A stretch of 64,000 bases of DNA from an uncultured Syntrophomonas sp. (GCA_964494735.1 CAZBSD010000004.1:10988-74987); one strand, 5' to 3'. Shown: positions 48,941-53,968, counted from the stretch's first letter. Notes: generated from the sequence alone by a model not told the origin. Program-made: numbers and translations.

Positions 48941-49645
48941 ATGCGGTCTATATTGCGCAAGTTGTATCGGGGCCAGGATTTGAATGATGAGGAATACGCC
49001 CGCCTGGCAGGTTATGCGGATGAACTGCGTGCCAATTCGCCTCATTCCTACCAATTATTCTATGAGCGCTTCGCACCCATCCTTCACCGCGATTATGGTA
49101 TTCACCTGCCTCGCTTCTATTTCGGTATAGATGATGTCTATGAATATCTGCTCTCCCATCCGGAATTGACCGCTCGCCTCCGCACCGAGCCCCTGGATGC
49201 GACCGTTTTTCCCGCTCACCTGCGCGAATACCTCTTATCCCCCGAAGGCCAGAACGCCTTATATACGTCGCTCCTGCCGGCGCTGGAACACCCCGATTAT
49301 GGCCGGCCTGACAATAAGGAGCTGCCCCGTCCCCGCCTAACCGAGGCAGTCGTCAAATTCGAAAGCGGCAATCCTTTGAAAGAGACCGGGCTCAAGGCTC
49401 ATTTCAATCGCCTCATCGCCTTCCCGTTCGTAAGCCGGTTGCAGAGTGTGCGTTATCTGCGCGGTACCAAAGCCAGCCAGGACAAGATTGACATCATCAC
49501 CGGCAACTGTCTGGGAGGTATTTTTACCAACAAAGAGAAATCAATATATTATTATATATTCCTTACGGAGGACGACCGCAGTAAGGCCGAAAATGCTTGC
49601 CGACTTCTCAACCAGACTCTGTATGGAATCAGCGGCGGGGAATGA
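48941..49645 (+). CDS. hypothetical protein A of a four-gene cassette
   Basis: ATG 8 nt after AGGAG and 20 nt after the pdaA stop. 234 aa with no TM segment and no motif I recognise. Confidence 0.6.
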   Translation: MRSILRKLYRGQDLNDEEYARLAGYADELRANSPHSYQLFYERFAPILHRDYGIHLPRFYFGIDDVYEYLLSHPELTARLRTEPLDATVFPAHLREYLLSPEGQNALYTSLLPALEHPDYGRPDNKELPRPRLTEAVVKFESGNPLKETGLKAHFNRLIAFPFVSRLQSVRYLRGTKASQDKIDIITGNCLGGIFTNKEKSIYYYIFLTEDDRSKAENACRLLNQTLYGISGGE

Positions 49646-49649
49646 ACTC

Positions 49650-51116
49650 ATGCACACCATTATGGAAACACTGGCGGCGGGGCCGGTCGAACAAGATCTG
49701 TTCGGTTATTGGCGCAAGGAACTCGAACTGCGCCGGATGCTGAAGGACGCCCTCGACGGACCGACGGTTCACATCGAAAACCAGGCTCAATTCGATTTCC
49801 TCAGAAGAGGTCTTTTCTACGGCCCCCACCAGGATTCGTTTTTTAACGTACTATGGCGCAATATGGCGGAACCGGCGGTCATCACCATGGTGATGGATTC
49901 ATCGCCATCAGTCGTGGTGCAATACTTGGACTATCTTACTATTCATATGACTGATCAGCATCGCCCCGCCCCTTCCCTGCGGTTCTTGATAAATCTCTAT
50001 AATGAACATTGGCAGCCTCAATATGCCCGACTGATTCAGACCCTGGATGCTGAACAGTGCGGATACCTGGTTTCCCGCACCGGCAATGGGGACCTGCGCC
50101 GGATGCTGAAAGATCGCCTGGAGAAGATCAAGGATCATGCTGCCCATAATGAGCCCATGACTGGCGACAAACAGCCGGTGACGGCCTGGCCCAGTATCCA
50201 TGGCGATAAGGTAGAACTATTGTCGGCCGCCGCCACCGTGTTGCAGGGTTGGGACCAGGCCGGAGCTGTTCCAAACCAAAGCCTGGCGCGAGTGGAGACT
50301 CTTATGGATGGAGCCGAACTGCTGTTTCGGGCTGGATTGCTATCCGATTGTATGGCCGTGCTTAACCGGATGTTCTCCGATCGCGAACTGGAAAGACACT
50401 CCGCGCTGTTGTCGGCCACCGGTCCCCTGGGTGGGCGGCTGCTCCGGCTGTTGGACCGGGTGGTTCCTATATTTGGCCTGCTGGTGGATCCCTTCCATCC
50501 ACGCAGTCATGTCCTCAGCAATTACCGCAATCTATTCCCCGGTTGCAATCCCGATCCGGCTTCTCTGCTCTACCTTGACCTTTACGCCCTGGTGCTGGCC
50601 GGCTTGCAAAAACGACGCCATTATGCCAGCTTCGAGATAGTGCAAAAAGCATCCGCAATCCGATCCCTGTGTGATGATGACCGGCTGGTTCAACAATTGG
50701 TGGTATGGGGGCACAGCGGTGTTTTTAATGGTTCCGGACTATTAGACTTTCTAGGCTCCAAAATGATGCAGCGCCCCCACGAGACCCTGGCTGGTCTGGA
50801 AACTCTGCGCTATCTGCATATGCGGGGGGCGTTGTCCCTGGACAGGCCAACCGCCTCTGGGATGCTGTCTGTATTCCTGCAGCTTTTCTATTGGCTGCCC
50901 CACCCAAGCTTCATTAATAGCCAGCTTGTCAAACAGATTGGACCGGAGAGCGATGAGGAGGTTAGAAGAGAATCAGAACAGATTCTGGTCTCCTGGCACC
51001 GGGTCTGGCATGATAATAAGGATACTCCAGCGGTCCCGCCCCATCACCAGCAAAGCGGTGCAGAGCAGGCGCTGGATAAGATGATTCGCTTGAGCCGATC
51101 GATGGGGGTGTTATAG
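49650..51116 (+). CDS. hypothetical protein B (488 aa, apparently helical)
   Basis: ATG 4 nt after the stop of A, with GGGGA upstream. The ORF-track start at 49446 overlaps A and is unlikely. No recognisable motif. Confidence 0.6.
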   Translation: MHTIMETLAAGPVEQDLFGYWRKELELRRMLKDALDGPTVHIENQAQFDFLRRGLFYGPHQDSFFNVLWRNMAEPAVITMVMDSSPSVVVQYLDYLTIHMTDQHRPAPSLRFLINLYNEHWQPQYARLIQTLDAEQCGYLVSRTGNGDLRRMLKDRLEKIKDHAAHNEPMTGDKQPVTAWPSIHGDKVELLSAAATVLQGWDQAGAVPNQSLARVETLMDGAELLFRAGLLSDCMAVLNRMFSDRELERHSALLSATGPLGGRLLRLLDRVVPIFGLLVDPFHPRSHVLSNYRNLFPGCNPDPASLLYLDLYALVLAGLQKRRHYASFEIVQKASAIRSLCDDDRLVQQLVVWGHSGVFNGSGLLDFLGSKMMQRPHETLAGLETLRYLHMRGALSLDRPTASGMLSVFLQLFYWLPHPSFINSQLVKQIGPESDEEVRRESEQILVSWHRVWHDNKDTPAVPPHHQQSGAEQALDKMIRLSRSMGVL

Positions 51117-52695: not shown

Positions 52696-52699
52696 CCGT

Positions 52700-53968
52700 A
52701 TGCACGTAGTTATAGACATGGGCGACAAAAACACCGTACTGGCAGCCTGGCGAGAAGGTCAGCCCCTGGATGACCCGTCCATTCTGGTAAATTTACCAGG
52801 TCTTAACGATTCCACCACCGGGGTGAATGATGACCCCTGGAGCCGGGCCAGTTTATATCGCCATGTAACTAATCTGTACCGGGAATATCTGCTGCCCAGC
52901 CGGTTGTCAATCAGGTCTCTGGCAGCAGCCATACCAGATATATCCGGAGTGCCATTAAGGCGGACCCTGCTGGATGTTTTCGAGGAAGTATTGGGTTTGG
53001 AGGAAGCCATCATTGTCCCTCGCTTCCTGGCCATGGCCGCCGGCTGGCAGCTCCACAGTCCACAGTCCTTGGGGAATATAATGGTGCTGGATGCTCAAGA
53101 TGAAGAGGAAGAAGTCGCCTTCATCAGCGCCTGCCCCGATGTGACGCTCACCCTGGAAGGACAGTATCCCGGAAATCTTCGGACCATCCGGGAAGCGGCT
53201 GCCCGACTGGGGTTTCTGTCCTCTTCCGGGTGGAACCTCGACCACCTTTACCTTCTGAATAATGTTGGAGCCAACAGCCAGATAAGGCGGTTGATATCGG
53301 GCCTGCCCAGCCGGGTGACCATCCACAATGGTGACAATCCTGGCCGGGCTGTGATGGAGGGTCTGGTTGCACACGTATATCAGGGCTTCTCTCCAGGGAG
53401 ATTAAGCGTGATTTATCCTTTTGACTTTTACCTGGCCAGCTTCGACCAGGAGGAACAAATGAATTCCATCCACAGGTTGCCTTTCGATACCAACAATCTT
53501 GAGCTCGACTGCACCTCCTGCTACAGGCTGGCCCGTCTGGTCACGACAGATATTCCCGCCAGTGAGGCAGACCCGGAGCAGTTACGGCTCGGCATCTTCG
53601 AGATCGGCCACCAGGACCGCATCGAGCTAGACAATTTATCACTGGCTCAATCAATACTCAATATAGATTGCTGCCGCACCGATCTGCCTGACCGGGTGGA
53701 CCTGATCCTGGATATGGCAGCCGCCGTTATCCGTCCCGACCTGGACTCCGGCCGTGATGAGGGAGACCTTCTAGATCCGGCATCCTTTTGGGAACACTAC
53801 CACAACAGGCTCTCCCAGGACCATACCATTGGGCAACTATCCACACCAGCCCCTGACCCATCATCATCTTCAAGCGATCCGGCCGTCACTTTCTCCCCCC
53901 TGGACAACCAGATAGCTGTTACCCTGGCCCGGCTGCAATCACTATTGGGCCAGTGGAAACATTTCTAG
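52700..53968 (+). CDS. divergent Hsp70/EutJ-like ASKHA-fold protein (protein D) with a ~190-aa C-terminal domain of unknown function
   Basis: ATG 4 nt after the stop of C. Five segments appear in the order expected for the fold. VVIDMGDKNTVLA is phosphate-1-like. AAIPDISGVPLRRTLLDVFEEVLGLEEAIIVPRFLAMAAG parallels DnaK VP....AQR.A..DAG.IAGLEV.RIINEPTAAALAYG. IMVLDAQDEEEEVAF sits at the phosphate-2 position without glycines. YLLNNVGANSQIRRLI sits at the adenosine-motif position. NPGRAVMEGLV matches NPDEAVA.GAA. Confidence 0.6.
   Translation: MHVVIDMGDKNTVLAAWREGQPLDDPSILVNLPGLNDSTTGVNDDPWSRASLYRHVTNLYREYLLPSRLSIRSLAAAIPDISGVPLRRTLLDVFEEVLGLEEAIIVPRFLAMAAGWQLHSPQSLGNIMVLDAQDEEEEVAFISACPDVTLTLEGQYPGNLRTIREAAARLGFLSSSGWNLDHLYLLNNVGANSQIRRLISGLPSRVTIHNGDNPGRAVMEGLVAHVYQGFSPGRLSVIYPFDFYLASFDQEEQMNSIHRLPFDTNNLELDCTSCYRLARLVTTDIPASEADPEQLRLGIFEIGHQDRIELDNLSLAQSILNIDCCRTDLPDRVDLILDMAAAVIRPDLDSGRDEGDLLDPASFWEHYHNRLSQDHTIGQLSTPAPDPSSSSSDPAVTFSPLDNQIAVTLARLQSLLGQWKHF

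Follow-up and report, generated by a model that had tools for sequence, protein, structure and literature searches.

Three of the four products of a tightly packed gene cassette in Syntrophomonas resemble no known family; what do these genes encode, and why has the fourth come to look like the remnant of a chaperone? The cassette lies at positions 48941-53968 of a 64,000-nucleotide (nt) stretch of DNA from an uncultured Syntrophomonas sp. (GCA_964494735.1 CAZBSD010000004.1:10988-74987). This whole stretch is hereafter called the window, and window coordinates are counted from its first letter. An earlier note, made from the sequence alone, had described four consecutive genes (here A, B, C and D) for uncharacterised cytoplasmic proteins downstream of a pdaA-like deacetylase gene. 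Our computational analysis reveals A-D to be functional genes of a cassette that is vertically inherited in the Syntrophomonadaceae. Protein D derives from Hsp70, and the form found in the window has very probably lost the ATPase function of that family. In anaerobic digesters the Syntrophomonadaceae are the principal syntrophs that oxidise fatty acids, and a family-wide, strictly conserved operon of this kind marks a clear gap in syntroph biology.

A vertically inherited cassette of the Syntrophomonadaceae

The cassette and the gene directly upstream are arranged as follows (lengths in amino acids, aa).

48030-48920, + strand: pdaA, delta-lactam-biosynthetic de-N-acetylase of the spore cortex, a secreted enzyme
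48941-49645, + strand: gene A, 234 aa, ATG start
49650-51116, + strand: gene B, 488 aa, ATG start
51118-52695, + strand: gene C, 525 aa, TTG start
52700-53968, + strand: gene D, 422 aa, ATG start

Both the list of open reading frames (ORFs) and the junction sequences agree with the close packing, gene lengths and distance from pdaA first reported, the spacings being 20 nt for pdaA-A, 4 nt for A-B, 1 nt for B-C and 4 nt for C-D. A Shine-Dalgarno site had been claimed for each gene, and a purine-rich stretch of that kind is indeed located 7-10 nt ahead of every A-D start (AGGAG at 48928-48932 for A). Some gene callers start B further upstream at a GTG, giving 507 aa, or C further downstream at an ATG, giving 509 aa. 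The starts given above are supported because B homologues are likewise 488 aa long and C homologues align from C residue 2-10.

Hydropathy analysis predicts all four proteins to be cytoplasmic and devoid of hydrophobic segments, with a maximum 19-residue value of ≤1.41 compared to 2.3-2.4 for membrane or secreted neighbours. No Walker A motif is present in A-D; CxxC is absent from A, B and C and occurs once in D. These data, together with the family searches described below, bear out the earlier description of A-C as proteins without transmembrane segment, Walker motif, metal-binding motif or domain signature. The same note had called C Trp-rich, and its Trp content is 2.3% against a window median of 0.83%.

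Scanning the GTDB species genomes for the pattern of the A alignment gave 68 species loci. Nearly all carry the label Syntrophomonas or Syntrophomonadaceae, S. zehnderi OL-4 and S. palmitatica JCM 14374 among them. Such a pattern-based scan could miss variants, and S. wolfei, Syntrophothermus and Thermosyntropha did not turn up in it. Profile searches of the locus ORFs found the order and sizes of A-B-C to be constant in all 68 species, wherever the contig reaches, with D next after C in all but four. Co-occurrence of the four genes outside the window genome, on which the novelty claimed for the cassette depended, is hence observed throughout these relatives, D being absent in four. Median gaps across species are 6 nt (A-B), -1 nt (B-C) and 4 nt (C-D), with a B-C junction of ≤10 nt in 57/59.

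Word-indexed searches of 5.8 billion proteins yielded 10-12 clusters for each of B, C and D (10 for B and 11 for C). For A, 1.84 billion representatives were searched exhaustively with phmmer, which gave 20 matches, mostly full-length at ~230 aa with a few fragments. All named sources of A-D relatives are Syntrophomonas, Syntrophomonadaceae or Ca. Syntrophocurvum, and no relatives of A or C were found in viral contigs. The locus is flanked by conserved housekeeping genes, comprising an Hdr-like redox cluster, a C92 amidase, SatP/YaaH, a Cu_amine_oxidN1-glucosaminidase, a hybrid histidine kinase, MTHFR and isocitrate dehydrogenase. The cassette is vertically inherited at a fixed chromosomal site and is specific to the Syntrophomonadaceae, in line with the earlier preference for a lineage-specific module in a housekeeping context over a defence island.

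Median ratios of nonsynonymous to synonymous substitution (dN/dS) are 0.15 for A, 0.19 for B, 0.18 for C and 0.24 for D (17-40 species pairs), compared to 0.10-0.11 for the neighbouring C92 amidase and pdaA genes, and these ratios give no gene-wide sign of diversifying selection in A-D. Identity among relatives is 55-63% for A versus 30-47% for B-D, and B, C and D evolve ~2x as fast as their neighbours. Because dN/dS is well below 1, A-D are functional genes under purifying selection, somewhat less constrained than those that surround them.

Protein D is a reduced Hsp70

An AlphaFold2 (AF2) model of D was generated from 12 homologues (predicted local distance difference test (pLDDT) 78; predicted template modelling score 0.74). 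The best Foldseek matches of this model are BiP, DnaK, Sse1/Hsp110 and Ssb, with E=2e-11 to 1e-8 and a template modelling score of ~0.5. In all 50 PDB matches listed, the Hsp70 construct contains the substrate-binding domain (SBD), and entries of ~380 aa that consist of the nucleotide-binding domain (NBD) only are not among them. The model divides D into three regions.

52700-53389, + strand: reduced NBD core (residues 1-230), compact alpha/beta, with lobes IB and IIB deleted
53402-53740, + strand: beta-rich domain (residues 235-347, AF2 strands) resembling the Hsp70 substrate-binding beta-sandwich, a likeness that is structural only
53750-53965, + strand: linker of low confidence (residues 351-399) and C-terminal helix (residues 400-422; 400-421 in the model)

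Within the third region, pLDDT falls below 50 at residues 351-357 and 370-399. The beta domain has no significant sequence match to the Hsp70 SBD, and the alignment to DnaK covers the NBD only.

Window D has no Pfam or NCBIfam match at E≤1, placing it below the gathering threshold of PF00012, and a profile of the short forms does not match DnaK significantly. Clearer evidence comes from the orthologues that occupy the same operon position, which fall into long (550-582 aa), mid (~465 aa) and short (419-432 aa, including the window) classes. Five long orthologues of 565-597 aa all score above the Pfam HSP70 cutoff of 20.6 (42-58 bits), and the one long D tested against the PDB matches DnaK (E~1e-9). 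A long-D profile aligns to the DnaK NBD with 98.9% probability, and short and long forms align end-to-end by hhalign (100% probability, E=8e-82). The structural model and the orthologue matches together identify D as an Hsp70-derived protein with the two-lobed ASKHA fold, the founder of a new Hsp70 subfamily that has diverged deeply. The Hsp70-type ASKHA half of the original "Hsp70/EutJ-like" assignment stands. The EutJ half does not, as there is no EutJ-type NCBIfam or Pfam match and the neighbours are pdaA, the C92 amidase and SatP/YaaH rather than eut genes.

Alignment of the short forms to long orthologues and DnaK locates the deletions to lobes IB and IIB. In window D, the phosphate-1 motif DxGTxxT, the catalytic Glu (DnaK E171), the phosphate-2 motif DxGGGT and the adenosine motif GGxxR/S are all lost. 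A census of 43 non-redundant D sequences, including 20 long and 20 short forms, found all four nucleotide motifs in 15/20 long forms and none in 19/20 short forms, with the Glu motif only in the remaining one. Because lobes IB/IIB and all four motifs are missing, window D very probably cannot bind or hydrolyse ATP in the manner of an Hsp70. The best conserved motif of the D family, IPFDTxNLELD, is located in the beta domain and is kept in 38/43 sequences.

Further lineages contain an N-terminally truncated D of 355-374 aa, and in four species A-B-C are present but D is missing from the locus, its place being taken by an unrelated acyl-CoA dehydrogenase gene on the opposite strand. Since A-B-C persist in those four species, none of the three requires an active D. 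The D proteins form a graded series that runs from intact through the mid form of 465 aa, the form of ~420 aa and the N-truncated form to absence. With its constant partners, this series provides a comparative set for Hsp70 scaffold function without ATP, the steps being an intact ATPase, loss of IIB, loss of IB, IIB and all motifs, N-truncation and gene loss.

Proteins A, B and C form orphan families

Searches of A-C against Pfam, NCBIfam, PADLOC and PHROG returned no family at E=0.01, the best values being E=0.029 (PADLOC) and E=0.21 (Pfam), both for A, and D gave nothing significant in these collections either. When A, B, C, D and two further genes found at the loci of relatives (X and f2, see below) were compared with the PDB by sequence and by profile, no specific match was obtained, and profiles built from 36-46 homologues each of A, B and C likewise retrieved nothing specific from the PDB. 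The C profile matched helical bundles and coiled coils only (best E=0.001). When homologues were scanned against Pfam one by one, the 44 C sequences returned scattered coiled-coil noise only and the 46 B sequences no match. Neither paralogy among A, B, C and D nor internal repeats in B and C could be detected (hhalign probabilities <8%). By these searches, A, B and C are three orphan families for which no relative could be detected beyond a single bacterial family, and the novelty claimed for them was upheld by the lack of any confident profile match.

Protein A is modelled with good confidence (AF2, pLDDT 83) as two domains.

48941-49288, + strand: N-terminal helical domain of A (residues 1-116, AF2 secondary structure)
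49349-49624, + strand: C-terminal alpha/beta domain of A (residues 137-228, beta-alpha-beta4-alpha, AF2 model)

An alignment of 36 sequences contains 23 invariant residues, mostly polar and located in the C-domain, where the polar set comprises E141, N144, K147, E148, H154, R166, R171, Y172, N197, S201, Y203 and E210. Foldseek found no PDB neighbour for the A model (best E=0.15), and none among the BFVD viral structures at E≤0.001 (best 0.0095). An HPD tripeptide at residues 117-119 was considered as the signature of a J-domain and rejected, as it shows no conservation among 8 or among 36 homologues and A has no DnaJ Pfam match.

Few residues are invariant in B (W21, E24, N146, W415 and P417), and C likewise has very few. 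Hydrophobic periodicity, calibrated on the A and D models, predicts B and C to be mostly helical, with 67% of C windows helix-periodic, and the body of C is predicted to be long and helical or coiled-coil-like. The C-terminus of C differs in character.

52519-52692, + strand: strand-rich C-terminus of C (residues 468-525), strand-type periodicity, with invariant G501, D502 and P517 (..EGDIFII..IP..)

Periodicity alone thus agrees with the earlier view of B and C as largely helical and of C as ending in a beta-rich region. A resemblance of this C-terminus (..APGNV..GY..) to GrpE was supported neither by the Pfam scan nor by hhalign: GrpE is absent from the 25 Pfam families listed for the 44 C members, no family is common to >2 members at E≤0.1, and the C profile aligns to E. 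coli GrpE with a probability <1%.

In most clades, conservation within C is highest in the motif DLERxLAPRNxxRxWKD. At the corresponding residues 438-455 (52429-52482) it has decayed in the clade of the window, where it reads RDLEKMLDKRVLADKFGD. Co-evolution of this motif with the loss of the D ATPase was considered and rejected, since the motif is kept in several short-D clades.

Linkage of the cassette to pdaA

The upstream gene is assigned to pdaA. Its product passes the equivalog cutoff of NCBIfam TIGR02884 spore_pdaA (301 bits, cutoff 298), the second-best model, PdaB, scores 152 bits against a cutoff of 237, and Pfam Polysacc_deac_1 is matched at E=7.6e-35. A consensus scan located one promoter-like element ahead of it.

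47947-47975, + strand: sigma-70-like promoter match ahead of pdaA, GTGTCA-17-TATAAT, 10/12, a pattern match only

In the window genome pdaA is probably the first gene of the transcript. Because only 20 nt separate it from A, and a simple scan found no terminator-like site between pdaA and A (or within the A-D cassette), A-D are probably read through from pdaA.

This arrangement is frequent in relatives, with pdaA directly upstream of A on the same strand in 39/67 species at gaps of 14-343 nt; the pdaA linkage seen in the earlier note is accordingly common, although not universal. A -10-like element (G(G)TTAAAATA(g)ta / TACAAT / TAGAAT) is conserved ~35 nt ahead of the A start, with no recognisable -35 (e.g. 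loci L039, L042, L043, L063 and L066). It occurs in most of the species that lack pdaA and in many of those whose pdaA-A spacer is long. Because of this element, A-D are predicted usually to have their own start signal. The pdaA-A spacer has shrunk to ~20 nt in the clade of the window, where a similar sequence is found inside the upstream gene.

48890-48899, + strand: GGGTTATAAT within the pdaA 3' end, 41 nt ahead of the A start

This may be a remnant or a functional copy of the -10-like element. It also overlaps the codons of the conserved PdaA motif GY(N)F and could be a coincidence.

In 27 loci the unit begins with a further gene, X (60-65 aa, ending ..LEDELIFDIE), which adjoins A in 8 and is separated from it by pdaA in 19; examples are L052 6704-6895, L070 6784-6984 and L088 8708-8905. 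X is not present in the window or its close relatives, and the two X sequences searched have no Pfam match, nor was any PDB match found. Ca. Syntrophocurvum lacks pdaA at the locus and has the order C92(-), CBS(-), X, A, B, C, D (570 aa, HSP70), then two PspC/LiaF-type genes. In Ca. Syntrophocurvum alkaliphilum, these two genes of the PspC/LiaF-TM envelope-stress type are on the same strand as D (L088 14728-16278). Elsewhere, a very well conserved orphan of ~270 aa (f2, ending ..CSSCDHPC) directly follows D in 25 species (L039 7758-8588; L082 12769-13593); it has no Pfam or PDB match and occurs nowhere in the 64-kb window. X and f2 of the relatives thereby join A, B and C, three new protein families.

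The state of D varies with the presence of pdaA. D is reduced in 25/29 species with pdaA upstream and full length in 16/20 without it. Uncorrected for phylogeny, this association has an odds ratio of 25 and a Fisher p=4.6e-6. A neighbour-joining tree of A+B+C places the reduced forms in ~3-4 clades. Consensus sequences for the Bacillus-type sigma factors F, G, E and K gave 0 matches upstream of pdaA or A in 65 loci, the same as in shuffled sequences, a result that is uninformative for a distant clostridial lineage. The sporulation context proposed earlier is retained as far as the pdaA neighbourhood is concerned, from which it was derived, and gains nothing from sporulation-sigma consensus sites. 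The recurrent coupling to a spore-cortex gene nevertheless offers a testable lead.

A proposed role for the cassette

The reading to which we incline, tentatively and short of calling it probable, is that of a vertically inherited cytoplasmic A-B-C complex that in the window lineage is joined by the Hsp70-derived D as an accessory, ATP-independent subunit or holdase. A, B and C would form the functional core, with B and C as helical or coiled-coil scaffold proteins and A as the specific binding or catalytic piece, a role suggested for A because of its many invariant polar residues. D may ancestrally have been a dedicated, ATP-driven Hsp70 for this complex. The motifs lost from the window form suggest that there it would act without ATP, as a subunit or holdase, via its conserved substrate-binding-like beta domain. 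A role tied to spore or cell-envelope biology is suggested by the neighbourhood, namely pdaA, the C92 amidase, the glucosaminidase and, in one genus, PspC/LiaF.

Several observations weigh against this proposal. dN/dS rises to 0.27-0.40 in several pairs of reduced D, which also fits a gene heading for loss, and the fold of A gives no functional clue, having no significant Foldseek neighbour in PDB or BFVD. The envelope or spore link in particular is weakened by the location of PdaA, which acts outside the membrane while A-D are cytoplasmic, by the 28/67 species without pdaA directly upstream, by the conserved -10-like element that A has of its own in most species, and by the lack of a Bacillus-type sigma F/G/E/K consensus upstream of pdaA or A.

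Were the cassette instead a sporulation module tied to PdaA, it would be expressed with the cortex delta-lactam enzyme and serve a spore-specific assembly or protection. Expression would be in the forespore if Bacillus-like, and the ATPase loss of D would reflect an ATP-poor, dormant compartment. Such a module would account for the 20-nt gap without terminator-like site in the window, for the adjacency of pdaA in 39/67 species and the order X-pdaA-A-B-C-D in 19 loci, and for the further wall enzymes that flank the locus; spore formation in some Syntrophomonas species is named in the title of a reference cited in PMC13422317. The reduction of D in ~3-4 clades, tracking pdaA adjacency with an odds ratio of 25 uncorrected for phylogeny, points the same way, but the association is confounded by phylogeny. 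Most of the 28/67 species without pdaA directly upstream contain a full-length D, Ca. Syntrophocurvum has X-A-B-C-D without pdaA and followed by PspC/LiaF genes, and no sporulation-sigma consensus was seen upstream of pdaA or A at 65 loci, the window pdaA having a sigma-70-like match instead. We consider a sporulation module somewhat unlikely. A bolder version holds that A-B-C(-X) is a novel cytoplasmic assembly of spore-forming syntrophs working with PdaA, in which D was repeatedly (3-4 lineages) turned into an ATP-independent structural clamp upon fusion of the operon with pdaA. We regard this version as unlikely; if true, it would be a natural, replicated case of an Hsp70 evolving into a non-enzymatic subunit.

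The graded series of D can also be read as decay. A conventional dedicated Hsp70 system, with A, B and C as co-chaperones or obligate client, could be degenerating toward loss in the window lineage, as the 20 non-redundant orthologues with an intact, motif-bearing Hsp70-like D, the descent from there through 465 aa, 420 aa and N-truncated forms to absence, the highest dN/dS of the four genes and the decayed DLERxLAPRNxxRxWKD motif in C of the window's clade would all suggest. We regard this as a fair rival, though an unlikely one. Against it, A-C are still of full length and subject to purifying selection in lineages whose D is dead or absent, and the short D keeps its beta-domain motif at a dN/dS well below 1. 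The expected co-chaperones are moreover missing, with no J domain (the HPD of A is not conserved) and no GrpE signal in C (44 members; hhalign <1%). An anti-phage or conflict system of an Hsp70-containing type (CoCoNuT type III, DO-GTPase-tubulin-HSP70) is disfavoured and seems to us highly improbable. Degenerate Hsp70-like NBD/SBD proteins do occur with helical partners in such systems (PMC11090510; PMC7159879), and the roughly twofold faster evolution of B, C and D relative to their neighbours would suit a conflict. The best PADLOC match is, however, insignificant (E=0.029, for A), no GTPase, AAA+, nuclease or DUF2357 component is present in A-D, no relatives of A or C were found in viral contigs, the single locus is fixed between housekeeping flanks that are conserved family-wide, and dN/dS of 0.15-0.24 indicates no gene-level diversifying selection. 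To the notion that A-D are spurious or non-functional ORFs we attach practically no credence. Their lack of database annotation and the weak conservation of B and C, with only 2-3% of columns ≥95% conserved, might invite it, but it is already refuted by conservation, with frames intact and length constant across 68 species, and by dN/dS well below 1, as well as by the confident AF2 models of A and D.

Comparison with known systems

No described system of the same composition was found in PADLOC or the literature, as the earlier note had supposed, and nothing relevant was found in the literature on the cassette or on Hsp70-like genes of Syntrophomonas. The closest parallels are DnaK-DnaJ-GrpE and HscA-HscB. 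D belongs to the same superfamily, with a two-lobed ASKHA core, a beta-rich domain that resembles the beta-sandwich and a helical tail, the phosphate-1, catalytic Glu, phosphate-2 and adenosine motifs are retained in its orthologues, and its operon also encodes dedicated partner proteins. In contrast to these canonical systems, the cassette has no J-domain or GrpE partner, the partners being three orphan families, and window D lacks lobes IB and IIB as well as the nucleotide motifs and falls under the Pfam and NCBIfam thresholds. Divergent, stand-alone Hsp70-like ATPases of the YegD type (PRK11678)/HscC offer a second comparison, as the best NCBIfam matches of long D include the YegD-type model. 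Long D nevertheless reaches 44-58 bits against a family cutoff of 331 and differs in length and C-terminal domains, and the YegD-type and HscC proteins have no known A-B-C partners.

Non-housekeeping Hsp70s are also components of conflict systems. CnuD of type III CoCoNuT is an Hsp70-like NBD/SBD protein proposed to bind rather than remodel, and the CoCoNuTs, which are defence-island genes, have McrB-type GTPase and DUF2357/McrC components at their centre (PMC11090510). The DO-GTPase-tubulin-HSP70 and GAP1-N2-HSP70-GrpE systems are multi-gene units in which such an HSP70 is one component that can be lost secondarily; TRAFAC GTPases are their defining component, and tubulin, GrpE or DnaJ fusions may or may not be present (PMC7159879). 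A-D differ from type III CoCoNuT in lacking Walker A, AAA/GTPase, DUF2357 and a significant PADLOC match and in the vertical inheritance of the locus. They differ from the DO-GTPase and GAP1-N2 systems in that no P-loop, tubulin, GrpE or J domain is present in A-D or in the 44-46 homologues of B and C, and in a phyletic pattern that is narrow and vertical.

Genomic neighbourhood

The most constant neighbour of the cassette is a C92 amidase gene, found in most of the 68 species loci and more constant than pdaA itself.

47231-47953, - strand: C92/NlpC-P60-like amidase, membrane-anchored, divergent from pdaA

In the window, its product scores 24 bits with Pfam Peptidase_C92, under the cutoff of 27, matches NLPC_P60 weakly and has a hydropathy peak of 2.43. 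An amidase beside PdaA recalls the CwlD-PdaA pair that is needed for muramic delta-lactam. Overlapping the amidase gene is an ORF at 46780-47247 (- strand) for a multi-transmembrane protein of 155 aa, with no Pfam match.

The Hdr-like redox cluster occupies 39166-46311 (- strand) of the window. It is Hdr/sulfhydrogenase-like and contains an HdrA2-like protein (508 bits) together with AsrA/AsrB-like and ferredoxin-type subunits. The cluster adjoins the cassette in most, not all, relatives, with cobalamin genes in its place in L017. At the position of the CCG-domain (HdrB-like) gene of relatives, the window has an ORF at 44431-45741 (- strand), the C-terminal third of which is a long Ala/Lys/Glu-rich low-complexity stretch (..AEARAAAEKAAQEAAQKARAKAEAAAAARAAAAAKAAAKA..). 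Two further ORFs of the window, of 301 aa at 41045-41950 (- strand) and 345 aa at 58167-59204 (+ strand), have no NCBIfam match at E≤1e-5.

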